Below are positions 17,436 to 39,106 of a DNA stretch of 64,000 nucleotides, in pieces. Within the stretch, counting starts at the first letter, position 1. The number at the start of each line of letters is the position of its first letter. The stretch lies in contig NZ_CP018477.1 in NCBI RefSeq assembly GCF_002277955.1, positions 2,003,206 to 2,067,205 of the forward strand, written 5' to 3'. A program made the position numbers and the translations under genes. Origin of the DNA: Thermogutta terrifontis (GTDB lineage: Bacteria; Planctomycetota; Planctomycetia; Pirellulales; Thermoguttaceae). The notes below the pieces were generated by a model. It searched no databases. It was not told the origin of the DNA and worked only from the letters and a program-made list of their open reading frames with translations.

Positions 17436-19454
17436 TCAGGGAGTATTCTGTGCAGGAGAAGACCGGTTCGGCTTAGCCGTTTCATTGGCATTACCAGATG
17501 CCGGTTGAACGTTTTGGGCCAGGATTGGGAGTGGGTCATAGAGGGGCATATGTCGGTAGTATACCTCGAGCGTACAGATTGCTAGTGCTGTGGTGTAGAT
17601 GCGACCTCCCTGTCGGCCGTAGCGCTCCGTGGGGTCCCAGCTTCCCGCCAGCGATCCAGTTTTCCGCTGGGTGGGCAAAAGCGTCGCTTTCATGGCCTCG
17701 TTCCATTTACGCCAGAAATCTCCGCCCATATTGTGCATCACCTGAGTGGCATAGTAGATGTAATAGAACCAGGGCTGAGAAGTATCGAGCTTTTTGGGGG
17801 ACGGGAGGTTTTCCAGGAGATAGTACGCCCCCGCTTTCATTCCTCGGTGTTCCCTTGGCCAGCCCAGATATTGGCGGCACAAAAGGGCTTCAGCGGTCAT
17901 AGTGGGAGTTGCGGCATGCCCCGGCCGATAGGCGTAGCGGCCGCCATATTGATCCGTTTGTGCTGAATCGAGGTACTGAGAGGCTTTGTAGAACACGGTG
18001 TCCGGTACGCGAAGATACGCCATCTTTCCGCTGCGGAGGGCCATCAATTGCCAGCCCAGTACGCTCGTATCTCCTTCCTGTCCAGGTTCATAGCGCCACC
18101 CGCCCGCCGGATGCTGAGCGCGAATGATAAAATCGATCGCTTTTTGCGCAGGTTCTCGCAGTTGCGGGTCCTGAGTCATCGCGTAGGCTTCACAGAGGAC
18201 CAGGGCCGCCTGTCCGTGCGCGTACATGTCGCCAATGCCGTTTCCCCGCAGGTCACCATCGGGTCCTTGGTGACTGACAAGCCAGTTAAGGCCCTTCAAA
18301 ACGACCTGGCGGTATTCCCCCTGGATGTGTGTCTGACCGGCTCCCAGAAAAGGCAGCAGGGCCAGAGCGGTGGCAGCCACGTCAGCCTGCTGGCCGAGTC
18401 CGTCTTCATCACCGGAGGCCCCGGGCGCCAAATGGAAGGCGTGGAGCGACCAACTCCCGTCGGCATTCTGATGTTTGGCCAGCCATCGCAGTCCGCGGGC
18501 GACGGCGGCTTCGGTTTCGTTCGTTCCGCCCTGTTCAGCCAGGAGCCGTGATCGCACTGACGGATCCCGACCCGCAAATATGGCGGCCACCGGCCGGGAA
18601 AGAAGGACGTCGCTGAGGCGATCTGCTACCGCGGCCATGGGAAGAGTGGGTTGCAGCGATTCCCCCAGCGAATCGGGGGCAAACTGATCCACGATTCCCA
18701 CATCCTGCTCGGCGGGCAGGTGGACGTCGGTCACCAGCCCGGCCTCTTCGAATTCGTTCGGGAGATGCTCACGCTCTTCCAGCAACCCTTCCTCACCAGG
18801 GCTGTCTCGATAGTTGATCGAAGTCGAAAGCGTGATGGCCGGCGGAGGCAGGCCTCCTGGCGCGGCCAGCATTCCCAGAAGCAGGAATGCGACCAGATGA
18901 AACACGAGACTGATCAGCCAGGCAGGGGCGTCGTCCCAAATGACCTGCCAAAGGCTGCGAACTTTCCGCGGCGCTATCGATTGGCGGAGAAACTCCCGTC
19001 GCTCCTCAGCCTGGCGAGAAGGGGAGCGCATCGGCTGACCAGCCGATTTCGGCACCTCTGCCGTCCAACGCGGAGGCGTTGGAACCTTGGGCCCTTGTCC
19101 AGTGCTCCTGGCGCGAAGCGAAGGTTGGATAGAGCGGGCGGCCTGTTGCACCTGTTGGAGCCGTTCTGCTTCCCAAAGCTGGAGCAGGCGAATCGCTTCC
19201 GCTTCCTGCTCCTCTGTCAGCTCCACGCTGGCCCCGCACCGCCAGCAGTCCGCCAACCGCAACCACAGCCGAATCGACATGGGTGCCCCGCAATCGGGAC
19301 ACGCACAAGCCAGAACCCCACCGTCCAGCCATATTTGGCCAGGTTGCAGGGACGAGCGGCTTTCGTGGCTCGGGGAGCCCGTCTCCACACCTGACGGGGA
19401 CTCCGCTAAAGGCTCCGAGTTTTGAGAAAAATCCCGCATCGGACCAGGTGGCAA
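17436..19454 (-). CDS. membrane-anchored protein: N-terminal Cys4 zinc-ribbon, Pro-rich linker, single TM helix, C-terminal QW-repeat alpha/alpha-toroid (prenyltransferase/squalene-oxidase-repeat) domain
   Basis: CACPDCG...CWRCG zinc ribbon. TM WLISLVFHLVAFLLLGMLAA. QW-type motifs in the C-terminal half (QNADGSWS, HQGPDGDL, QHPAGGWRYEPG). Confidence 0.5.
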   Translation of the reverse strand: MPPGPMRDFSQNSEPLAESPSGVETGSPSHESRSSLQPGQIWLDGGVLACACPDCGAPMSIRLWLRLADCWRCGASVELTEEQEAEAIRLLQLWEAERLQQVQQAARSIQPSLRARSTGQGPKVPTPPRWTAEVPKSAGQPMRSPSRQAEERREFLRQSIAPRKVRSLWQVIWDDAPAWLISLVFHLVAFLLLGMLAAPGGLPPPAITLSTSINYRDSPGEEGLLEEREHLPNEFEEAGLVTDVHLPAEQDVGIVDQFAPDSLGESLQPTLPMAAVADRLSDVLLSRPVAAIFAGRDPSVRSRLLAEQGGTNETEAAVARGLRWLAKHQNADGSWSLHAFHLAPGASGDEDGLGQQADVAATALALLPFLGAGQTHIQGEYRQVVLKGLNWLVSHQGPDGDLRGNGIGDMYAHGQAALVLCEAYAMTQDPQLREPAQKAIDFIIRAQHPAGGWRYEPGQEGDTSVLGWQLMALRSGKMAYLRVPDTVFYKASQYLDSAQTDQYGGRYAYRPGHAATPTMTAEALLCRQYLGWPREHRGMKAGAYYLLENLPSPKKLDTSQPWFYYIYYATQVMHNMGGDFWRKWNEAMKATLLPTQRKTGSLAGSWDPTERYGRQGGRIYTTALAICTLEVYYRHMPLYDPLPILAQNVQPASGNANETAKPNRSSPAQNTP

Positions 19455-29323: not shown

Positions 29324-30034
29324 TTAGTACCGCGGAGAAGCTTTTTCCGCCAAGGCGGGCTGGCTTTCTCCGGCTGGGGTGCCGCCGTAAACATACGCTT
29401 CCCATTGTTTGAGGTCCATGCCAAAGTCCTTGCCGGTGGTTTGTTTGAGGGATTGCACGGCAAGGTACTGGATGGCCGGATCGCGATTGCGGAGAAGTTG
29501 AGCTAGAACTTGGTTCGCCCTGGGATCGTGGAGTCGGCCCAGCGCCTTGATTGCCGCCTGGCGAACGTCCTGATCCCGGTCGTTGAGGGCTAACTCAGAC
29601 AGCACGGACACCGCGGAACCAGAGGGACTTTTGGCAAGGAGATGGCACAATTGGATCCGTACGCTTGGCTCCTCGTCGCTCTTGGCACGTTCCACAAGTG
29701 TGTCGCTCGGTGGCAGGTTCAACTGCCCCATGAGACGAAGAAGCTCGGCTCTCAATTGTGGGTCGTCCTCCTTAAGAAAGGCTTCTTCCAATTGTCGGGC
29801 TACGTTTGATTTGGCGCTTGGACTTGTCGCGCTTTTGACCAGCTTTTGCCAGTTTTGAAGCTTCTCCCGCGGGGCGACGATTCCTGGAGGCAGTGGAATA
29901 TCCTGCGATGTTTTCTTCTTTCGCAAAAAGCTGTTCGAGCCGCTACAGCCTGCGGCTAGCACAAGCATGATCAGCACTCCACCAAAGACGCAGTATTTTG
30001 TGAGCGCAGGCGTTCGTGGCTTGTTACGCCTCAT
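29324..30034 (-). CDS. HEAT/PBS-lyase-repeat lipoprotein
   Basis: Start re-assigned to ATG 30034 (MRRNKPRTPALTKYCVFGGVLIMLVLAAGCSG). Lipobox L-A-A-G-C. Repeated HEAT-like units (DEEPSVRIQLCHLLAKS, DRDQDVRQAAIKALGRL, NRDPAIQYLAVQSLKQ). Confidence 0.55.
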   Translation of the reverse strand: MRRNKPRTPALTKYCVFGGVLIMLVLAAGCSGSNSFLRKKKTSQDIPLPPGIVAPREKLQNWQKLVKSATSPSAKSNVARQLEEAFLKEDDPQLRAELLRLMGQLNLPPSDTLVERAKSDEEPSVRIQLCHLLAKSPSGSAVSVLSELALNDRDQDVRQAAIKALGRLHDPRANQVLAQLLRNRDPAIQYLAVQSLKQTTGKDFGMDLKQWEAYVYGGTPAGESQPALAEKASPRY

Positions 30035-30651
30035 CAGATGATTTTCCAGTTTGGATAGGGAGACACACATGAACGGGTCTGCCACAGCGCGAGGTCAAGG
30101 GTTTTCCGTCCATGCCTGACGACGTCCGACAAATTGTCGACAAGCAGGGGGCCGACGGTATCCCTGTCCGCAGACGCCCTTGCTGACATGACTTGCGGAT
30201 GCTTCCTCCATCAGCGCCTAAAGTGCCCGCCGTACGGCCCAAGAATCCCTCTCGCCCGAAACAACCACCCAGATACCCTCGGAGAATACTTACCCAATTC
30301 GGTTCAGTTTGCCAAGGTTTATTTTGCTTCCTTTTTGATGGAGGGGCCAAAACCAGGTCAATGTGCGCCGTGATCCTCAGAACCGCTGGCCTGACTGTGT
30401 CTCGAGGCCGGCTCCCTGGGAATCCGTTCGAAAAGACTCGCGCTGGGCCGGCGAACGGACGTGAATTAGGATAATCTCGGAAGAGCGTTGCCAAATTGGC
30501 GGCGACCATTCGCCCTCCGAATGGGGATGTGATATGATAACAGGTGGTAATGGCCATCCCCTGCGCATGTTCCTCGAGTGGTCTCGACCTACGGATGTTT
30601 ATCGCAGGGTGGTTTACGGTCCATTGGGCGCAAAGGGAAGGAGCGAGTGTC

Positions 30652-31161
30652 ATGATTGAACCTGCCGATCATACGAAAAGACGCAATTGGGTCGAGACCA
30701 TCCTCAGATACGTGCCGGGATTCCGCGGATACTTGGAAAAGGAGTACCGTCGAGAAAGCGACAACCTCCAGCGTGAATGGCTGGCAGGTCGCCTGGAGCG
30801 GGCCAAGCGGGCCATTGACAATCTGATGGGGTTACTGGCCGAAGGAGGACACGTGGACCAACTCGCCAAGCTGGATCAGGTCCGCAGCCGGATCGATCAT
30901 CTCATCGCGCGCGTCCGGGGGGCGATGGAGGGCTATAGCGGTTTCTTTGACCTTGTCAGAATCGACGAAGCGGTGCTCGATCGTGTCTATGAATATGATG
31001 TGTCCCTCGCAGAGAAGGTGGAGGAACTGGCAACGGCCATCGAGCGCTTGCCCAAATGCCCCTCTGACCTATCCTGCGCAATCGACGAGGTGGTCGCTTC
31101 GCTCCAACAGTTCCACCACCTCTGGGATGCCCGCGAAGAGATTCTCGCTGGTCTGCGATAA
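30652..31161 (+). CDS. hypothetical all-alpha cytoplasmic protein (about 170 aa)
   Basis: ATG 30652 preceded by GGAAGGAG (30636-30643) with an 8-nt spacer. The track ORF starts further upstream without an RBS. Helical, charged, no TM. Lies 138 bp upstream of the SPFH gene on the same strand. Confidence 0.4.
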   Translation: MIEPADHTKRRNWVETILRYVPGFRGYLEKEYRRESDNLQREWLAGRLERAKRAIDNLMGLLAEGGHVDQLAKLDQVRSRIDHLIARVRGAMEGYSGFFDLVRIDEAVLDRVYEYDVSLAEKVEELATAIERLPKCPSDLSCAIDEVVASLQQFHHLWDAREEILAGLR

Positions 31162-31298
31162 GTGGCGATGAGTCAGGACTCATGAATTGTCCACGCCTCA
31201 TGAGATTGGCACGCGAGAAGTTAAAAAGGTTTTCCGCGCAACCGAAATTACCGAGGCGGGCGTGTTATCTCGCAAGAATTGACTGAGGAGATTGTTCA

Positions 31299-32702
31299 AT
31301 GGGCGTGCGCCTGGAAGTCATCCAGTTCTTCGACGAGACAAACCGTTCGCTGATTCAGCGCATTCCTCCGGAAGGATCGGCGGATATCAAATTGGGGGCA
31401 CAGCTCATTGTCTATGAAAATCAGGAAGCCGTCTTTTTTCGTGACGGCAAGGCCCTGGACCGATTCGGGCCGGGACGCTACACACTCACAACGGCCAATG
31501 TCCCCCTGATAACTCGACTGCTGACAATTCCCTGGGAGAAATCCCCTTTTCAATGTTCCGTTTATTTTGTCGGTAAGCAAACGTTTCTGGATCAGAAATG
31601 GGGGACCCGCCAACCTATTGTCTATCGTGACCCGCAGCTTGGAATGGTCCGTCTACGGAGTTTCGGCAAGTTTTCATTCCGGGTGAGGGATTCTGTCGTT
31701 CTCATCAACACGCTTGTTGGGACACAAGGCAAGTTTACGACCGAGGAGGCTACGAATTTCTTAAAAGATCTCATCGTTGCTCGTCTCACTGATTTTCTGG
31801 GCACCCTCAACGTCAGCGTGCTTGATCTTCCCTCGCGGTATGACGAACTGGCGGCTGGGGCGAAAGCCAAAGTGGCAGAAGATTTCGCCAAGTACGGTCT
31901 GGAGATTGTAGACTTTTTCATTAACGCCATAACTCCGCCCGAGGAAGTGCAACGTATGATCGACGCCCGCAGCGGCATGGGGGTTATCGGCAATCTGGAT
32001 GCCTATTTAAAGTTCCAAATTGCCCAGAGTTTGGGAAAGCTCGCTGAGGGACAGGGTGAGGGCAGCAGCGCCATGGGGATGGGCTATGGTGCCGGCTTCG
32101 GCATGATGTTGCCTGCGATGATTCGCGAAGCGATGCGGGACAGCGCCGTTTCCCCTAGTCCGGGCGCACCGCCTTCGGCGATGCCCGTTTCGACACCGTC
32201 AACTTCCCCCCTGGCCGCAGGTGCCGTCGGTAATTCGGTCATGTCGGGAGGTGCACAGACGGTGCAGCAACCAGAAAAAGACGCGGCTGAGGCCACCAGC
32301 GATCCCATCGCGTTGGTCCGGGAATTTGCATCGCGGTCCGGCTATCAGGTGGAAGAGACGGCGGACAAACTGAAAGTGCTCGTTCCTGTGGGAAATCTCC
32401 GCAAGCAAATTGTCTGGTGTGGTGTTTATCAGCCACAGTCCACTGGTGGGCAGGTGGTACGTTTTTGGTCGGTGTGTGGTCCGGCCACAGAAAAAAACGC
32501 TGTCGCTCTCTTGCGATTCAATGCCCAATTGGCCATCGGAGCTTTTGCGTACGACAAGCTGGATGGTCAGGAAGTCATCATTCTCCAGACCACCGTTCCG
32601 GCCGCGACGATGACCGTTTTCGATGTCGCCCGAATACTCCCCGCCCTCGCATGGCAAGCCGATCGAGTAGAGGAACAATTGAGCGGAGAGGACATTTACT
32701 GA
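31299..32702 (+). CDS. SPFH/band-7 family protein (TM-less 'virion-core-protein-like' COG4260-type N-domain) fused to a YbjN-like C-terminal domain
   Basis: N-terminal about 300 aa resemble the soluble SPFH subfamily ([34 protein letters not shown] ... coiled region). An Ala/Pro/Ser/Met/Gly-rich linker follows, then a beta-rich about 130-aa domain ([20 protein letters not shown] ... [22 protein letters not shown]) reminiscent of the YbjN / T3SS-chaperone-like fold. Confidence 0.55.
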
Positions 32703-32719
32703 GACGCCTCCCATTTTAA

Positions 32720-33904
32720 ATGGGTGCTGATCGGATGAGTGTGGTAACACGTGTCTCTCAATCAGCCAACTTTTCGAAAGTTGCCGTCTATTGGCTCGCA
32801 GTAGTCCTGTTGCTGTCCCCGGGGAGCTTTTCCGCTGTCGGCTATTCGCTGGACATTGTGCAAGTCAAAGAGGGCGAGAGCGTCCTCACCTATCATGGCC
32901 GAATTCTTGTTCAGGCTGTGGATGGCGGAATTCTCTTGCTCACGCCGGAAGGGCGGTTGCTTCCCCTTGCGCCGGCCGAGATCGTCTCCGTCTCCCGCGA
33001 CTCTGCGGAATTCAAGCCAGCAGATCCGGAAGAGGTCGCGCGGTGGTGGCTGAAGCAATTACCCTCCGGCTTTGAAATGTATCAAACTGCCCACTACCTG
33101 ATTTTGCATAATACCTCTCGCGATTATGCCCGCTGGTGTGGCAGTCTGTTGGAAAGACTTTACGCTGGTTTTACCGCGTATTTTGCCAACAAGGGGGTCA
33201 CCATTGAGAAACCGGAGTTTCCCCTTGTGGTGATTATTTTTTCAACTCGGGAGCAGTACGTGGCGCATTGTCGGGCTGAGGTGGGCGATGGCATCGAGAA
33301 AATTCAGGGTCACTACAACCTGGTGACCAACGTCGTCACGATGTATGACCTGACCGGGAGCGGCGGGACCGCCACCGCAGCCCAGATCGCGCGATTTGTG
33401 CAAAACCCCAACGTGCGGCAAAGCATTGCCACGGTCGTCCATGAGGCGACTCATCAACTGGCCAACAACTGTGGAATCACGTGCCGCTGGACCGATACGC
33501 CTCAGTGGGTGGCGGAGGGGCTGGCCATGTTCTTTGAGACCCCCGATCTGCGAAGCGCCCGCGGCTGGTCCACGGTGGGAGCCGTCAATCAATCCCGGCT
33601 GGACCGTTTTCGCAGTTATCTTGCCAGAAGGCCAGATGATTCGCTGATAACGCTCATTCGCGACAATGCACGCTTCCAGAGCACGGAAACCGCCTTGGAC
33701 GCGTACGCCGAAGCCTGGGCCTTGACGTATTTCCTGCTCCAGCAGAAACGAAGCGCTTTTTTGGAATACCTCAAGCGGCTGCGAGAAAAGCCGCCCCTGG
33801 TTTATGACTCCCCAGAAGAACGAATCCGCGAGTTCACGGAAATCTTAGGGAATTTTGAAGCCCTCGACGCGCAGCTTGTCCGTTTCGTTTCGCGTCTGCG
33901 TTGA
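32720..33904 (+). CDS. secreted DUF1570-family protein with HExxH motif (putative zinc metallopeptidase)
   Basis: N-terminal signal/anchor (VAVYWLAVVLLLSPGSFSAVG). HEATH motif in VVHEATHQLANN. DUF1570 is a Planctomycetes-enriched family. Starts 18 nt after the SPFH gene's stop. Confidence 0.55.
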   Translation: MGADRMSVVTRVSQSANFSKVAVYWLAVVLLLSPGSFSAVGYSLDIVQVKEGESVLTYHGRILVQAVDGGILLLTPEGRLLPLAPAEIVSVSRDSAEFKPADPEEVARWWLKQLPSGFEMYQTAHYLILHNTSRDYARWCGSLLERLYAGFTAYFANKGVTIEKPEFPLVVIIFSTREQYVAHCRAEVGDGIEKIQGHYNLVTNVVTMYDLTGSGGTATAAQIARFVQNPNVRQSIATVVHEATHQLANNCGITCRWTDTPQWVAEGLAMFFETPDLRSARGWSTVGAVNQSRLDRFRSYLARRPDDSLITLIRDNARFQSTETALDAYAEAWALTYFLLQQKRSAFLEYLKRLREKPPLVYDSPEERIREFTEILGNFEALDAQLVRFVSRLR

Positions 33905-34093: not shown

Positions 34094-35431
34094 ATGACAC
34101 GTTCACAGCAAGCATGTCGCGGAACAACGAAGCCGTCTGCCTCCACTCGAAGAGATTTTCTGAAAACGACCGGGTTGGTGACAGGCGCCGCGCTGACCGG
34201 TGTCTCGATCGCCCGCATGGCCCATGCGGCGGGAGAGGATCCGATTTTGAAGATCGCCCTCATCGGATGCGGTGGCCGTGGAACGGGAGCGGCGGCCAAT
34301 GCCCTGGAGGCGGATCCAAGAACTGTCCTCGTAGCCATGGCAGATGCTTTTGAAGACCGTTTGAAGGGCAGCCTCGCGGCCTTGAAAAAGCAGTTTCCTG
34401 ATCGCGTCAAGGTGACTCCCGAAACTTCCTTCGTCGGCTTCGAGGCTTACAAGAGTGCCATCGCAGCGGGTGTGGACGTGGTTCTCTTGTGCGAGCCACC
34501 GCATTTCCGCCCCATTCATCTCAAAGCCGCGATAGAAGCCGGAAAGCACGTCTTCGCAGAAAAGCCTGTGGCGGTGGATGCCGCCGGTTATCGTTCCGTT
34601 CTTGAAAGCACAGAACTGGCACGGCAGAAAGGGCTTTGTATCGTCTCAGGACTGTGCTGGCGTTACCACCGGGCAACTATCGAGACGGTCAAGCGAATTC
34701 AGGACGGAGCGGTGGGTGACATCATCGCGATTCAGGAAACTTACAACACAGGTCATATCGGTGGACGCGATCGTGATCCCAAGTTGACGGAAATGCAATT
34801 TCAATTGCGAAACTGGTACTGCTTCACCTGGCTTTCCGGGGACCACAATGTGGAACAGCACATCCACAGTCTGGATAAAGCCCTCTGGGTGATGCACGAT
34901 GAGCCGCCGGCCGTGGCTTGGGGGATGGGGGGACGCCAGGTAAGAACAGAGATGCCCCGTTACGGCAACATCTACGACCACCACGCGGTCTGCTATGAAT
35001 ACCCCAACGGAGTTCGCGTCTACTCCTATTGCCGTCAGCACGCCAATTGCTGGAACGACACAACAGATCACGTCTTCGGCACAAAAGGCCGGGCAATCAT
35101 TCTCAATCAATGGCGAATCGACGGAGAACAGTCCTGGAAATATCAGGGCGAAAGTCCGAATATGTATGTTGAAGAACACCGCGCACTCTTCTCCGCGATC
35201 CGCAAGGGTGAACCGATCAACAACGGCGTGTACATGGCCCGCAGCACGATGATGGCCATTATGGGGCGGATGGCCACGTACACAGGGCAGAGAATCACCT
35301 GGGAAGAGGCGATCAATTCCAAGGAGGTGCTTGCCCCGTCGGCATACACGTGGGACGCGACACCGCCCATCGTCCCGGACGAGAACGGTCGCTATCCCGT
35401 GGCGATTCCGGGCATCACCAAATTTATTTGA
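34094..35431 (+). CDS. Tat-exported Gfo/Idh/MocA-family oxidoreductase (GH109-like candidate)
   Basis: RBS GGAAGGAG (about 34080-34087). Tat signal (STRRDFLKTTGLVTGAALTGVSIARMAHA). Rossmann motif (IALIGCGGRG). Gfo/Idh/MocA C-terminal domain. Confidence 0.8.
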   Translation: MTRSQQACRGTTKPSASTRRDFLKTTGLVTGAALTGVSIARMAHAAGEDPILKIALIGCGGRGTGAAANALEADPRTVLVAMADAFEDRLKGSLAALKKQFPDRVKVTPETSFVGFEAYKSAIAAGVDVVLLCEPPHFRPIHLKAAIEAGKHVFAEKPVAVDAAGYRSVLESTELARQKGLCIVSGLCWRYHRATIETVKRIQDGAVGDIIAIQETYNTGHIGGRDRDPKLTEMQFQLRNWYCFTWLSGDHNVEQHIHSLDKALWVMHDEPPAVAWGMGGRQVRTEMPRYGNIYDHHAVCYEYPNGVRVYSYCRQHANCWNDTTDHVFGTKGRAIILNQWRIDGEQSWKYQGESPNMYVEEHRALFSAIRKGEPINNGVYMARSTMMAIMGRMATYTGQRITWEEAINSKEVLAPSAYTWDATPPIVPDENGRYPVAIPGITKFI

Positions 35432-35631
35432 TTGTCTTCATCACCGTTTCAGTGACGGCTGAATAATGACCGGCAGCCGGGGTTGGGGACGCGGAACCTC
35501 GCCCCGGCTGTGAGTTTGGGATGGACCTTGCGAGTCTTCAATGTGGATGCCCGCCGGAGGCGATCGAGGCGGTACGCATCCATGACAAACCCGAAGACAA
35601 ATCTCGGTATCAGGCATGGGGGAGGCATCCT

Positions 35632-37101
35632 GTGCGACGTCGCGAATTCTGCCAGCAGATAGGAATCGCCATTGGGCTTTACGCCTTTTCCAGACGCAGT
35701 TACGCAATTGAAATCACAGGGCAGGAGCTAGACCTTCCCAGAAAAGCTCATGATGCCCTTGTCCAGGCAGTCCGATTCTTCGACGAGAAAGTGTCGGTAG
35801 AAGGGGGTTACCTCTGGGCTTACTCCGAGGATTTGCGCTTTCGGGAAGGTGAAGCCCCCGCGTTACCCTCGACGGCCTGGGTACAACCGCCGGGCACTCC
35901 GAGTGTGGGAATGGCGTTCCTTGTCGCGTATCGCCTCACAAAGGAGCCGACGTGTTTGCAAGCGGCGACCCGCACGGCCCATGCACTCGTGAAAGGCCAG
36001 CTTGTTTCGGGGGGATGGGATTATCGGATCGAATTTTCGCCCGAACTGCGGAGGAATTGCCGTTACCGTCAACCGCCGAATGGCGGCGAAAAAGCACGGA
36101 ACGTATCGACGCTGGACGATGATACGACACAATCGGCGCTAAGGTTCCTCATGGAGTTCGACCGCACAACGGGGATGGCCGATAAACAGGTGCACGAGGC
36201 GGTTCTTTACGGGCTGAATTCGCTCCTGGCGGTGCAGCGTCCTAACGGAGGTTGGCCTCAGCGATTTAGGGAACTGCCTCGCCTTGAGGATTATCCGGAC
36301 GTGCCCGCTTCCTACCCCGAGGACTGGCCGCGTCAGTGGCCGGGCAAACCTTACTACGATTGCTACACCCTCAATGATAACGTCCATAACGAGGCCCTGA
36401 AGACAATGCTTTTGGCCTGGCGAATTTACGGAGACGAAAAATACCGGGCGGCAGCCCAACGAGCGGTAGAGTTTCTCCTGAAAGTCCAGATGCCAGACCC
36501 GCAACCAGCTTGGGCGCAGCAGTACGACGCGCAGATGCGTCCGTGCTGGGCACGGAAGTTCGAGCCCCCGGCTATATCCGGTGGCGAATCGCAGGGTGTT
36601 TTGCAGACACTCATTCTGGCCTTTCACGAGCTTGCCGAACCCCGCTTCCTCGATCCTATTCCCCGGGCTCTTGCCTATCTTGAACGGTCTACGCTTCCGG
36701 ATGGAAAGTTGGCACGATTCTATGAATTGAAAACGAATCGGCCGCTCTATTTCACGCGGGATTATCAATTAACCTACAGTGACGCAGACGTTCCCACACA
36801 CTATGCCTTTAAAATAGACAATCATATTGGGACTATCCGGCAGATGTATGAACATGCACGGCGAACGGGTCCTCAACCGTCGCTGGGGCTAAAATCTCCT
36901 GCCCCTGTTCTCTCTTCCGCCCTCGTGCAAACTGTGGAGCGCATCCTGAAAGAAATGGATGACCAGGGACGTTGGGTCGAAAAGGGAAATCTCAAAACAA
37001 GCGGAAAAGACGTAGCGGGGGACCGGATTATCACCACGCGAACCTTCATCAGAAATATCAGTGTACTGGCCCAATATCTTGCGGCTACCGAAAAAGAATA
37101 A
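35632..37101 (+). CDS. Tat-exported QW-repeat alpha/alpha-toroid protein (squalene-cyclase/prenyltransferase-like fold; possible PL10-type polysaccharide lyase)
   Basis: Probable start GTG 35632, preceded by GGGAGG (35619-35624), giving MRRREFCQQIGIAIGLYAFSRRSYA (RRxF Tat signal). The track ORF starts at ATG 35521. QW-like motifs (QLVSGGWDYR, QRPNGGWPQRF). Confidence 0.45.
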   Translation: MRRREFCQQIGIAIGLYAFSRRSYAIEITGQELDLPRKAHDALVQAVRFFDEKVSVEGGYLWAYSEDLRFREGEAPALPSTAWVQPPGTPSVGMAFLVAYRLTKEPTCLQAATRTAHALVKGQLVSGGWDYRIEFSPELRRNCRYRQPPNGGEKARNVSTLDDDTTQSALRFLMEFDRTTGMADKQVHEAVLYGLNSLLAVQRPNGGWPQRFRELPRLEDYPDVPASYPEDWPRQWPGKPYYDCYTLNDNVHNEALKTMLLAWRIYGDEKYRAAAQRAVEFLLKVQMPDPQPAWAQQYDAQMRPCWARKFEPPAISGGESQGVLQTLILAFHELAEPRFLDPIPRALAYLERSTLPDGKLARFYELKTNRPLYFTRDYQLTYSDADVPTHYAFKIDNHIGTIRQMYEHARRTGPQPSLGLKSPAPVLSSALVQTVERILKEMDDQGRWVEKGNLKTSGKDVAGDRIITTRTFIRNISVLAQYLAATEKE

Positions 37102-37219
37102 TCCCTCGTATCTACCCTGAGAGCAAGTGTTGTGAGGAGCGGTGTCTCAGGGATAAGCTGGACCCCTAAGGATTGCGGACGTAGCGTTGGTTGCACCTGG
37201 TACGGAGGAGATCGGCAAA

Positions 37220-39106
37220 ATGGCGCGTCCCAAAGTGCTCGTATTGTTGGAGGGAGTGGTGGCCGTTGGTTTGGGCCTGTGTGCGGTGGCCACTTTGGCA
37301 TTTGGGGCTGCGCCGCGACCGAATATCGTGTGGCTGACTACAGAGGACAACGCCGCATGCTGGTATCGGCTCTATGATCCGGCAGGGGCACCGATGCCCA
37401 ACGTGGAACGTTTGGCGAAAGAGGGAATTGTTTTTAATAATGTTTATTCATGCTCACCCGTTTGTTCGCCAGCCCGAAGTACCCTCATTTCTGGTTGTTA
37501 CGCGCCGCGGTTAGGAGCTCAGTGGCACAGGAAAATCCTGCCAGTGAAGCTTCCCCCGGGCCTCCATATGTTTCCCTGGTATCTGCGGCAGGCCGGCTAC
37601 TATACGACGAATAACAGCAAGGAGGATTATAATTTTGCCCCTTCCGAAAAGGCGGATGTCTGGGACGAATCTTCGCCGCGGGCCAGCTACCGTAACCGGC
37701 GACCGGGCCAACCATTTTTTCATGTTCAAAACTTCGGCCGAACCCACGAGAGTCAGTTATTCCCCAATAAAGACAATTCCGAGCTCGAAACGGATCCCAA
37801 CTCCGTTGATTTGTTTCCCTACCATCCCGATACGCCCCTTTTTAGAAATAAATACGCGCATTATCTGGATCTGCAGCGCGAGGTCGATTGGCAAATCGGC
37901 GATTTTATTCGGCAGCTCGAAAAGGATGGACTACTCGATGATACGTTCATCTTTCAGTTTGGTGATAATGGCGGGGTCCTGCCCGGCAGCAAGGGGTATG
38001 CCCGAGAGGACGGATTGCACGTTGCTTTGATTGTGTATGTTCCCAAAAATTGGCAGCACCTGGTCCCTGCACCGCGTGGCTCCCAGGTGGATGGGGTCGT
38101 TCAATTCGTTGATCTGGGGCCCACGGTACTCAACCTCGCCGGCGTGCCGATCCCGGAGGGAATGGACGGTAAACCATTCTTGGGACCCGGTGTCACACTG
38201 GAAGAACTCAATCAGAGGAACCAGGCCTTCGGCTACGCCGATCGCTTTGATGAAAAATATGATCTCGTCCGTTTTCTGCGAAAGGGCAAATATACTTACT
38301 GGCGAAATTATCAACCTTTCAACTTTGACGGCCTCTACAATGAGTATCGTAATAAGCAGGCCGCCTACCGAGAATGGTGGGATCTTTATCAGAAGGGACA
38401 GCTCAACCCGGTACAAAGAGCGTTTTTTGAACCAAAACCGCCCGAGTGCCTTTTCGATATAGAAAAGAATCCCCATGAAACCGTTAATCTGGCGAATGAT
38501 TCGCACTACGCCGAGGTCCTCGCAGACATTCGAACGACGATGCACGATTGGGTGACTGGACTGCCAGATCTCGGTTTTATTCCCGAACCCGTGTTCGTGC
38601 GGGAAAGCCAGGGTGATGGTTACTCCTACTGCCAGCACAATAAACAGCGCATAGCACGACTGGTTGAAATTGCTGACTGGCAGCTTCGGCCCTTCCCGGA
38701 GGTTGTCCCGATGTTGGAAAAAGCATTACAAGCGGACGATCCTCTGGAGCGGTATTGGGCCGTCATCACGTGTAGTGCGTTCGGGAAAGAAGCTCGGGCA
38801 CTGGCCGATTCCATCCGCAAAATGGCGGCGAGCGATCCCGACAGATTGGTGCGAATGCGGGCGGCCGAGTTTCTGGGGCTGACGGGCGAGGGAGATCCGC
38901 GACCATTCTTGATGGACATCCTCCAAAAGACTGACGATCCCGTGGAGGCCAACCTGATTTTGAACACGGTTGTGCTTCTCAAGGATGGGCCATCCCGGCT
39001 GAAGTTTGATCTGACACCGTTGCGCTCGGCCGCCTGGTTTAATGCACCGGGGGAAGTGGCACGCCGGGTCAGATATCTGATGGGGGAAGACGAAGCCAAT
39101 AAATAG
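37220..39106 (+). CDS. sulfatase (formylglycine-dependent) with C-terminal HEAT-repeat domain
   Basis: RBS GGAGGAG (37204-37210), then ATG 37220. Signal/anchor (VLVLLEGVVAVGLGLCAVA). Sulfatase active-site motif CSPVCSPARSTLISG (C-x-P-x-R). C-terminal about 150 aa of HEAT-like repeats (DPDRLVRMRAAEFLGL...). Confidence 0.85.
   Translation: MARPKVLVLLEGVVAVGLGLCAVATLAFGAAPRPNIVWLTTEDNAACWYRLYDPAGAPMPNVERLAKEGIVFNNVYSCSPVCSPARSTLISGCYAPRLGAQWHRKILPVKLPPGLHMFPWYLRQAGYYTTNNSKEDYNFAPSEKADVWDESSPRASYRNRRPGQPFFHVQNFGRTHESQLFPNKDNSELETDPNSVDLFPYHPDTPLFRNKYAHYLDLQREVDWQIGDFIRQLEKDGLLDDTFIFQFGDNGGVLPGSKGYAREDGLHVALIVYVPKNWQHLVPAPRGSQVDGVVQFVDLGPTVLNLAGVPIPEGMDGKPFLGPGVTLEELNQRNQAFGYADRFDEKYDLVRFLRKGKYTYWRNYQPFNFDGLYNEYRNKQAAYREWWDLYQKGQLNPVQRAFFEPKPPECLFDIEKNPHETVNLANDSHYAEVLADIRTTMHDWVTGLPDLGFIPEPVFVRESQGDGYSYCQHNKQRIARLVEIADWQLRPFPEVVPMLEKALQADDPLERYWAVITCSAFGKEARALADSIRKMAASDPDRLVRMRAAEFLGLTGEGDPRPFLMDILQKTDDPVEANLILNTVVLLKDGPSRLKFDLTPLRSAAWFNAPGEVARRVRYLMGEDEANK

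Follow-up and report, generated by a model that had tools for sequence, protein, structure and literature searches.

Organisation of the locus

The window analysed here is a stretch of 64,000 nucleotides of Thermogutta terrifontis DNA. It contains three tandem genes, which encode a small protein referred to here as s169, an SPFH protein and a DUF1570 protein (Table 1). All three genes had been described in a first-pass annotation of the same DNA, and all three are indeed present. They are not chance open reading frames, because each belongs to a conserved family with hundreds to thousands of homologues. The spacer between s169 and the SPFH gene is 137 nt, and that between the SPFH gene and the DUF1570 gene is 17 nt. 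Terminator-like sites were not found between the plus-strand genes of the locus, and scanning the window from end to end for Rfam families and tRNAs gave no hits. Flanking the three genes are a divergently transcribed gene for a HEAT-repeat lipoprotein and a gene for a GFO_IDH_MocA oxidoreductase.

Gene orientation and GC skew both flip at about 30 kb of the window. A replication origin in the intergenic region at 30.1–30.6 kb was considered but is not supported: DnaA boxes are not enriched there, and gene orientation alone can explain the flip in skew.

Table 1. Genes and protein features of the locus, with positions in the window.
Feature	Positions	Strand	Description
HEAT-repeat lipoprotein gene	29324–30085	-	Divergently transcribed; Pfam HEAT_2; lipobox LVLAAGC
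s169 gene	30652–31161	+	169 aa; ATG preceded by GGAAGGAG (ORF, RBS)
SPFH protein gene	31299–32702	+	467 aa; TM-less Band_7_1; GAGGAG 8 nt upstream of start
SPFH (Band_7_1) domain	31380–31985	+	Residues 28–229; Pfam E = 1.2e-61
Gly/Met-rich segment	32061–32129	+	Residues 255–277, nearly invariant
A/P/S-rich variable linker	32139–32258	+	Residues 281–320
CesT/Tir-YbjN-DUF2170-like C-domain	32259–32699	+	Residues 321–467; alpha-beta4-alpha-beta2-alpha
DUF1570 gene	32720–33904	+	394 aa; predicted signal peptide, small beta-barrel, metallopeptidase-like domain
Putative zinc site	33440–33517	+	HEATH (H241, E242, H245) and E266 within WVAEGLA
GFO_IDH_MocA oxidoreductase gene	34094–35431	+	Pfam; weak sub-threshold TAT-signal match

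The SPFH protein and its C-terminal domain

The N-terminal domain of the SPFH protein matches Band_7_1 (PF13421) with 208.4 bits (cut-off 24) over profile positions 9–211 of 211. Column identity in this domain is 80–93% across 120 homologues. The full-length architecture is kept as well, at 53–92% identity in the related loci that were retained and at 58–99% identity among the homologues listed. Our results bear out the earlier view that the protein lacks both a transmembrane (TM) segment and a signal peptide. The best 19-residue Kyte-Doolittle window, which falls in the C-terminal domain, reaches 1.49 and is below TM strength. Likewise, the N-termini of the 120 homologues are hydrophilic, and no TM segment was found in the query or in these 120 proteins. 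The SPFH protein is predicted from its sequence to be cytoplasmic.

The SPFH domain is followed by a Gly/Met-rich segment, in which M259, M261, G262, G264–G268, M269, M270 and P272 are invariant. Its mean hydropathy of 0.48 rules this segment out as a TM helix, and it may act at the membrane interface or in oligomerisation. The variable linker behind it is the sole poorly conserved part of the protein (column identity 0.33–0.40, with 26–29% gaps).

The C-terminal domain had been likened to YbjN. This held at the level of the fold, which is confirmed to be chaperone-like, but not at the level of sequence, where YbjN (PF10722) matches residues 337–441 with 15.2 bits (E = 0.026), short of the 22 bits required. 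One SPFH homologue (P0018) carries a precomputed PF10722 match. No Cys pairs were found in the C-terminus of the SPFH protein; an alpha/beta domain takes the place of the Zn finger or ribbon. The subfamily is marked by the signatures WSVCGP and AWQAD. The same domain also occurs in fusions with kinases, HEAT repeats and Zn ribbons, the contexts of which are unrelated. Its Zn-ribbon version was found in a DUF4178-DUF350-spermine-synthase operon, a type of operon described as a Psp-type context (PMC11237479). The gene contexts of the HEAT and kinase fusions were uninformative. The fusion of an SPFH protein with a YbjN-like domain had been thought undescribed; in agreement with this, our literature search found no paper mentioning YbjN together with SPFH.

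s169, the conserved upstream partner

The small helical gene upstream of the SPFH gene was only a side remark in the first-pass annotation. The gene is present with its ribosome-binding site as noted there, yet it deserves more weight, as this gene is the true conserved partner. The s169 protein has 650 homologues, nearly all of them exactly 169 aa long, and contains two near-invariant motifs in the alignment, PGFRGYLEKEYRR and GAMxGYSGFFDLV. Pfam matches were absent in 27 members of the family, even at E <= 5. A weak match to NCBIfam LIMLP_15305_fam (E = 7.6e-11) is far below its cut-off, and a search of the s169 profile against the PDB returned coiled-coil noise only. At the sequence level, s169 was rejected as a divergent PspA: besides the lack of a Pfam match, the hhalign probability for a match with E. 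coli PspA was 0.6%. In these sequence and profile comparisons, s169 showed no detectable similarity to PspA/ESCRT-III or to any solved structure.

Gene neighbourhoods were surveyed at 83 Pirellulales loci in species-representative genomes. Neighbours were counted from tblastn and HMM searches, with denominators that vary by neighbour (61, 72 or 79). Carriers of the locus include two species that can be cultured, Blastopirellula marina (DSM 3645) and Bremerella cremea. In 57 of 79 species loci (72%), the s169 gene is the immediate upstream neighbour of the SPFH gene and shares its strand; an s169 homologue went undetected in the other 22. Of 59 loci retrieved from metagenomes with an s169 query, 58 had the SPFH gene next in line, separated from s169 by a median of 92 bp. 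For the one more distant SPFH–C-domain gene with flanking sequence (P0409, locus L089), the upstream gene is unrelated, and the adjoining kinase lacks the C-domain. Another distant gene, P0381, was left out of the comparison, as its contigs are too short.

Linkage to DUF1570 is patchy. A DUF1570 gene occurs on the same strand within 3 kb downstream of the SPFH gene in 24 of 61 species loci (39%), and directly adjoins it in only 9 of these 61 (15%). In at least 13 loci an ABC permease gene lies between the two, and on the 7.5-Mb contig JAXGXG010000001.1 they are about 800 kb apart. This is far from the conserved Band_7_1–DUF1570 neighbourhood that the first-pass annotation would lead one to expect. 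Yet, the linkage persists down to SPFH identities of about 53–57%, and it was found in 12 of 15 metagenome loci, a set biased toward relatives of Thermogutta. The divergent HEAT lipoprotein gene is a commoner neighbour of the SPFH gene than DUF1570 (44 of 72 loci), and 12 of 21 loci have the GFO_IDH_MocA oxidoreductase gene after DUF1570.

The syntenic block runs from the HEAT lipoprotein gene through s169, SPFH, the optional ABC permease, DUF1570 and the GFO oxidoreductase on to dnaA. Among its members are also housekeeping genes unrelated to the rest, namely those for diadenylate cyclase and enolase, and dnaA. The tight pair at this locus is s169 and SPFH, rather than SPFH and DUF1570. DUF1570 would be co-transcribed with this pair at most in Thermogutta and some of its relatives and does not look like an obligate partner, although it may have a looser functional link with the pair.

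The DUF1570 protein

The DUF1570 protein scores 146.2 bits (E = 8e-43) with its family profile (PF07607), for which the cut-off is 22, and shows further weak Pfam matches to Peptidase_MA_2 and Peptidase_M1. A hydrophobic N-terminal segment is present in this protein and in 108 of 120 homologues, in line with the signal peptide ascribed to it earlier. Several of the homologues listed have AxA-type sites directly ahead of the first beta strand. The protein is therefore predicted, from these sequence features, to be exported via a cleavable signal peptide. The small beta-barrel that follows comprises residues 43–97.

The HEATH motif had been singled out before, and its conservation is complete: none of 38 orthologues departs from H241, E242 and H245. 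The same holds for E266, which gives an HExxH-X20-E spacing and lies in a predicted helix (residues 262–271); E273 is invariant too. By analogy with known peptidases, E266 is the putative third zinc ligand. The putative catalytic domain has a thermolysin-like fold. Sequence searches of the PDB returned nothing useful, whether the query was the SPFH protein, the DUF1570 protein or the DUF1570 profile, and the literature searched held no biochemical data on any DUF1570 protein. With reasonable confidence, DUF1570 can be predicted to be an exported M9/M1-like gluzincin peptidase. This large, planctomycete-rich family can now carry that label.

A proposed cytoplasmic pair as functional unit

On balance, we think it probable, though far from certain, that two genes make up the functional unit, and that their cytoplasmic products, s169 and a YdjI/SamI-type SPFH protein with a chaperone-like domain, form a sub-membrane scaffold. 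We infer that the SPFH part oligomerises beneath the cytoplasmic membrane, perhaps aided by the invariant Gly/Met-rich segment. On its flexible linker, the chaperone-like domain would dimerise, bind peptides and serve as an adaptor by which a helical client, most likely s169, is held or recruited. Together, s169 and the SPFH fusion might provide a scaffold for membrane maintenance or a stress response in Pirellulales. DUF1570 shares a slowly rearranging syntenic block with this pair. Tightly linked and highly constrained, s169 is the obvious candidate client, and the two genes offer a simple pair for the study of cargo recruitment by SPFH proteins.

A more far-reaching version of this proposal is tentative and, taken as a whole, rather unlikely. 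Here, s169 and the SPFH–CesT-like fusion would constitute a Pirellulales-specific membrane-maintenance system, in which s169 replaces PspA as a structurally new helical effector and the tethered chaperone-like domain keeps s169 assembly-competent, with DUF1570 and the HEAT lipoprotein perhaps as loosely coupled envelope-side parts. Since s169 has no detectable PspA/ESCRT-III similarity, the analogy with Psp is, in both versions of the proposal, drawn from the SPFH and CesT-like domains only. Genes for PspA, for a YdjG/H-like receptor or for another membrane receptor were not found in the locus. If true, this system would do the job that CesT/Tir-PspA and band-7 operons do elsewhere. It could then also matter for the cytoplasmic membrane of planctomycetes, which is unusually invaginated; few studies have addressed the unusual membrane biology of this phylum.

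Alternatively, the SPFH-YbjN protein and DUF1570 might be a dedicated quality-control module like HflKC-FtsH or stomatin-NfeD, acting across the membrane, for instance if the chaperone-like domain took charge of the DUF1570 precursor or of DUF1570 substrates. This was the central proposal of the first-pass annotation, and we consider it unlikely. The narrow spacing without a terminator, the same-strand position of DUF1570 in a part of the species loci and in most of the closer metagenome loci, and the truly peptidase-like nature of DUF1570 are all in its favour. Moreover, CesT-type T3SS chaperones bind extended N-terminal peptides of secreted proteins (PMC10948618). However, direct adjacency is rare, a permease gene often intervenes, the HEAT neighbour is better conserved, and one genome keeps both genes far apart. 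The SPFH protein has neither a TM segment nor a signal peptide whereas DUF1570 has a signal peptide, and the mature proteins are therefore predicted to reside in different compartments. In known SPFH-protease pairs, a membrane-anchored SPFH member shares its side of the membrane with the protease domain. A Pfam search of the locus found neither an NfeD- nor an FtsH-like domain.

Another explanation might be that the neighbours, s169 included, have no functional coupling and are held together by a slowly rearranging, possibly origin-proximal block. The housekeeping genes within the same syntenic block and the flip in orientation and GC skew would fit this picture. It is nevertheless quite improbable: the same-strand linkage of s169 to SPFH is far tighter than that of the other neighbours, and the length and motifs of s169 are extremely constrained.

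It is very improbable that the SPFH–CesT-like protein works close to the membrane as a holdase or targeting factor for its exported neighbours (the HEAT lipoprotein, DUF1570 and the GFO oxidoreductase), with s169 as a regulator rather than a client. Each of these flanking genes is absent from 40–60% of the loci while the SPFH fusion is retained, and the same C-domain is attached to kinases, HEAT repeats and Zn ribbons elsewhere. Moreover, SPFH proteins are not known to take part in Sec or Tat targeting. These points weigh more than the export-type signals of the three flanking genes (a lipobox, a Sec-type signal and the weak sub-threshold TAT match), the synteny of the block in many Pirellulales and the chaperone-like fold.

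Finally, an anti-phage defence or toxin-antitoxin-like module, earlier raised as pure speculation, is effectively refuted: all that speaks for it is that a peptidase and a small gene upstream are present, there was no PADLOC match and only one negligible PHROG match, and the genes form a vertically conserved, core-like set across Pirellulales (53–92% identity) in a housekeeping chromosomal context with a composition that is not island-like. Taken as a whole, the earlier interpretation of the locus is partly supported.

Comparison with known systems

As in HflKC-FtsH and in stomatin/YbbK-NfeD/YbbJ, an SPFH gene lies beside a peptidase gene in the Thermogutta window. In contrast to these systems, the Thermogutta SPFH protein is not membrane-anchored and the gene linkage is patchy. 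Also, the peptidase is predicted to be exported and soluble, and is not a membrane AAA or NfeD-type protease. A peptidase next door does not make an SPFH-protease module, and our analysis corrects this over-reading.

Compared to gluzincins of clan MA(E), such as the M9 collagenase peptidase domain, M30 and the M1 aminopeptidases, DUF1570 shows 13–15% identity. It lacks the collagenase activator domain and the GAMEN motif and N-terminal domain of M1, and has a unique small beta-barrel at its N-terminus.

For the C-terminal domain, similarity to the YbjN family (PF10722; E. coli YbjN, Erwinia AmyR) remains below threshold, at 15.2 versus 22 bits. Class I T3SS chaperones (CesT, SicP, SycE) differ from the Thermogutta case in their context: there is no T3SS here, and the domain is the C-terminal part of a larger protein. 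Further parallels are the CesT/Tir-PspA dyads, YjfI (DUF2170)-YjfJ of E. coli and BacA-BacB of P. aeruginosa (PMC10948618; Ravi et al., 2024). In these dyads the chaperone-like domain is free-standing, whereas in Thermogutta it is fused to a band-7 protein. The gene order is reversed as well: the BacA gene lies directly upstream of a PspA homologue (PMC10948618), while in Thermogutta the helical gene comes first. Furthermore, s169 is not detectably a PspA_IM30 protein, and the locus is without polyamine or ATPase genes. Band-7 and CesT/Tir domains have both been described as partners in PspA systems (PMC11237479).

The closest characterised relative of the SPFH protein is B. subtilis YdjI/SamI, a soluble SPFH adaptor of PspA, which is recruited to the membrane by YdjG/H and binds PspA (PMC8581546; bioRxiv 10.64898/2026.02.06.704340). 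Like the Thermogutta protein, this COG4260-type product of the pspA-ydjGHI operon is a Band_7_1 protein without a TM anchor. The two share a layout of SPFH domain, low-complexity linker and small C-terminal interaction domain. Moreover, both genes come just after the gene of a small all-helical protein, which is PspA in one case and s169 in the other. To our knowledge, YdjI/SamI is the only soluble Band_7_1 SPFH protein that has been studied. It belongs to a Firmicutes lineage, however, whereas the Thermogutta protein comes from Planctomycetota, and the Thermogutta locus lacks the PspA_IM30, TPM and Zn-ribbon TM proteins of the pspA-ydjGHI operon. Where YdjI/SamI has a C-terminal Zn finger, the Thermogutta protein has the CesT/YbjN-like domain. 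A chaperone-type domain, of a kind also known independently from PspA operons, would thus occupy the partner-binding end of the SPFH protein. By analogy with these systems, we read the locus as a new domain variant of a sub-membrane scaffold of the PspA-system type.

SPFH protein and its C-terminal domain

The 467-aa SPFH protein is a Band_7_1 protein (Pfam, E = 1.2e-61, residues 28-229) with 4683 homologues at E <= 1e-5. The best 120 of these, which belong to Thermogutta, Thermopirellula, Rhodopirellula, Blastopirellula and other Pirellulales, measure 443-504 aa and mostly align over 99-100% of the query. Conservation is extreme in residues 1-280 (column identity 80-93%), lapses in a variable A/P/S linker (281-320) and resumes in residues 321-467, hereafter the C-domain. 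A nearly invariant Gly/Met-rich stretch after the SPFH domain, within residues 1-280, was considered as a transmembrane helix and rejected as too polar (mean hydropathy just 0.48). In line with the first-pass annotation, neither the protein nor its homologues contain a segment of transmembrane-grade hydrophobicity.

The same annotation had likened the C-domain to YbjN and type III secretion (T3SS) chaperones. By sequence, the YbjN match is sub-threshold (PF10722, 15.2 bits versus a cut-off of 22, residues 337-441). Nevertheless, the AlphaFold2 model of residues 321-467, built from 27 sequences, is confident (pLDDT 85.8, pTM 0.80) and has an alpha-beta4-alpha-beta2-alpha topology. Its best structural match is BacA of the DUF2170/YjfI family (8q8o, score 12.7), followed by Tll0839 (2plg, 11.9), the CesT-family protein VecA (9uwz, 11.9), DR_1245 (4h5b, 11.0), about fifteen T3SS chaperones (8.8-10.9) and AmyR of the YbjN family (5fr7, 9.9). 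These matches therefore confirm the YbjN/T3SS-chaperone fold. The BacA gene lies directly upstream of a PspA homologue gene (PMC10948618).

A search of 1.84 billion representative proteins with the C-domain profile matched 821 proteins. Apart from its fusions to SPFH (400-470 aa), the domain stands C-terminal to a Zn ribbon in proteins of ~187 aa, to HEAT repeats in proteins of 250-290 aa and to Ser/Thr kinases; a 568-aa protein with weak membrane-protein Pfam matches carries it in tandem (representatives P0400, P0434, P0442, P0474, P0501 and P0438). It is a mobile, promiscuous C-terminal adaptor module. The Zn-ribbon version P0400 lies within a DUF4178-DUF350-spermine-synthase-like-K+ channel operon (L090:1862-7624); no PspA gene was called near it in the stretch of this locus seen. 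The DUF4178-DUF350-spermine-synthase-like context, a Psp-type polyamine context, has been given for CesT/Tir-PspA dyads (Ravi et al., 2024; PMC11237479).

Conservation of the gene neighbourhood

Using the SPFH alignment, we fetched 80 species-representative genome loci, all with full-length Pirellulales-type proteins (53-92% identity), and added three further distinct loci through exact-protein look-ups. Neighbours were scored by tblastn and HMMs, and counts are limited to loci with sufficient flanking sequence. In 57 of 79 loci (72%), the gene of the 169-aa protein s169 immediately precedes the SPFH gene in the same orientation. Metagenome contigs were scanned reciprocally, with the s169 alignment as query; in this set, which is biased to Thermogutta relatives, 58 of 59 loci with sufficient sequence have the SPFH gene after s169 in the same orientation (median gap 92 bp).

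Linkage to the DUF1570 gene is patchy. An orthologue was found within 3 kb downstream of the SPFH gene in 24 of 61 loci (39%) and directly adjacent (<400 bp) in 9 of 61 (15%); the HEAT lipoprotein gene, divergent and within 2 kb in 44 of 72 loci (61%), accompanies the SPFH gene more consistently. The SPFH and DUF1570 genes are separated in at least 13 loci by a two-module ABC permease gene of ~520 aa (BPD_transp_1), which the window lacks (e.g., L004:7610-9109; L051:9444-11024). On the 7.5-Mb contig JAXGXG010000001.1 the two genes are far apart: the SPFH gene lies at 2.17 Mb (L012), with no DUF1570 found within 8 kb, and the DUF1570 orthologue P0348, at 48% identity similar to syntenic orthologues, occupies an unrelated context at 2.97 Mb (L093). 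The GFO oxidoreductase gene directly followed DUF1570 in 12 of 21 loci (57%). The recurrent block also contains diadenylate cyclase and dnaA genes, so that a good part of the SPFH-DUF1570 linkage looks like regional synteny. Moreover, the DUF1570 family is multi-copy in some genomes, and chance proximity is therefore not negligible. Thermopirellula carries a second, divergent paralogue (~30% identity) 3.7 kb upstream of its SPFH gene (L001:1357-2475, minus strand).

The Thermogutta-biased reciprocal scan placed DUF1570 within 3 kb at 12 of 15 loci, so the two genes are genuine neighbours in that lineage, though not in general. Accordingly, a new SPFH-protease module, as the first-pass annotation proposed from this gene pair, was the weakest part of its reading and seems improbable to us.

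Locus and surroundings

The three-gene arrangement had been described correctly in every checkable detail (see table). The spacers are 137 nt (s169-SPFH) and 17 nt (SPFH-DUF1570), and no terminator-like hairpins were found between the plus-strand genes. Good Shine-Dalgarno sequences precede the s169 and SPFH genes; none precedes the DUF1570 ATG at 32720, where the upstream sequence is CCTCCC (32703-32740). There is an alternative ATG at 32735, and the start is uncertain because orthologue N-termini are variable. The s169-SPFH spacer contains a 16-nt perfect palindrome, ATGAGTCAGGACTCAT, and CTCATGA recurs ~15 nt later.

Features of the locus, in window coordinates
Feature	Position	Strand	Basis or remark
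s169, 169 aa	30652-31161	+	ORF call
SPFH protein, 467 aa	31299-32702	+	ORF call
DUF1570 protein, 394 aa	32720-33904	+	ORF call
HEAT-repeat protein with lipobox (LVLAAG|C)	29324-30085	-	Pfam and lipobox; divergent from s169-SPFH
GFO_IDH_MocA oxidoreductase	34094-35431	+	Pfam; TAT-signal match weak, sub-threshold
Intergenic region at orientation switch	30086-30651		
Perfect palindrome	31168-31183		
Gly/Met-rich stretch	32061-32129		within SPFH gene
dnaA	41441-43321	-	
Toroid-like proteins	35521-37101; 17436-19454		weak Pec_lyase or prenyltransferase-like alpha/alpha-toroid matches
Sulfatase-HEAT fusion	37187-39106		

HEAT repeats, as in the divergent lipoprotein, are also found fused to members of the C-domain family. 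The wider window is housekeeping (enolase, GMP synthase, DXS, polyprenyl synthase, NAD kinase, dnaA), and Thermogutta MAGs are the closest relatives among the matches listed. Pec_lyase/toroid-type and sulfatase-HEAT genes are typical of planctomycete polysaccharide degradation and bear no relation to our finding. GC skew and gene orientation change sign at ~30.1-30.6 kb, 11 kb upstream of dnaA, a gene that also comes after the GFO gene in other Pirellulales (L001, L004). The block may lie near the replication origin, but the DnaA-box count shows no enrichment (12 matches versus 8 expected).

The s169 protein

The search for relatives of s169 gave 650 homologues; among the 120 listed, almost every one has the same length, exactly 169 aa. 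The protein carries the invariant motifs PGFRGYLEKEYRR and GAMxGYSGFFDLV. No Pfam family matched, even at permissive thresholds, a profile search against the PDB gave coiled-coil noise only, and the weak NCBIfam LIMLP_15305-family match (E = 7.6e-11) is far under its cut-off. In the alignment, the pattern of conserved Pro and Gly residues points to four or five helices rather than one long hairpin. At the sequence level, identity with PspA was rejected (hhalign against E. coli PspA, probability 0.6%).

DUF1570 as a predicted peptidase

The 394-aa protein matches DUF1570 (Pfam, E = 8e-43) and, weakly, Peptidase_MA_2 and Peptidase_M1. The HEATH motif noted earlier is borne out: H241, E242 and H245 are invariant in 38 orthologues, as are E266 and E273. 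E266 sits in WVAEGLA, 20 residues past HEATH, and we take this HExxH...WxxEGxA pattern to be the third-zinc-ligand arrangement of M1 (WLNEGFA) and M9 enzymes. The confident AF2 model (pLDDT 89.2) has an N-terminal helix (19-32), a small beta-barrel (43-97) and a mixed alpha/beta-then-helical domain. An N-terminal hydrophobic segment in 108 of 120 homologues agrees with the signal peptide that had been proposed, and several homologues listed have AxA-type sites just ahead of the first beta strand; such sites after a hydrophobic N-terminus are typical of cleavable Sec signal peptides. Thus, DUF1570 is a predicted exported gluzincin-like peptidase. In the searched literature, DUF1570 was mentioned solely in a metagenome survey.

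Proposed function and comparison with known systems

The component families are known, and pairing of band-7 with CesT-like proteins has already been described at the operon level. As the first-pass annotation supposed for the fusion, we found no description in the searched literature of a Band_7_1 protein fused to a CesT/YbjN-like domain, nor of the s169 family as an SPFH partner or a fold-level assignment of DUF1570.

With both partner types in one chain and a tie to a small helical protein, a sub-membrane scaffold with a client-binding domain is the reading we think likeliest, and we favour it with moderate confidence. The SPFH protein would oligomerise beneath the membrane and associate with it, and its tethered chaperone-like C-domain would bind a client, most plausibly s169, perhaps in a stress role. 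DUF1570 would be an exported peptidase that acts on its own or is at most loosely associated with this scaffold. What the data show directly are the folds, the motifs, the compartments as predicted from sequence and the frequencies of gene linkage; oligomerisation, membrane association, contact between s169 and the C-domain and a role in stress are inferred from these. Readings other than this scaffold and the SPFH-protease module appear more improbable still than the latter.

The closest studied protein is YdjI/SamI, the soluble SPFH protein of the Bacillus subtilis pspA-ydjGHI operon, which is recruited by the membrane proteins YdjG/H and binds and localises PspA (PMC8581546; bioRxiv 10.64898/2026.02.06.704340). 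Band-7 and CesT/Tir-like proteins are recurrent chaperone-like partners of PspA (Ravi et al.; PMC11237479). Both types are united in the SPFH protein studied here, which is linked with a small helical protein.
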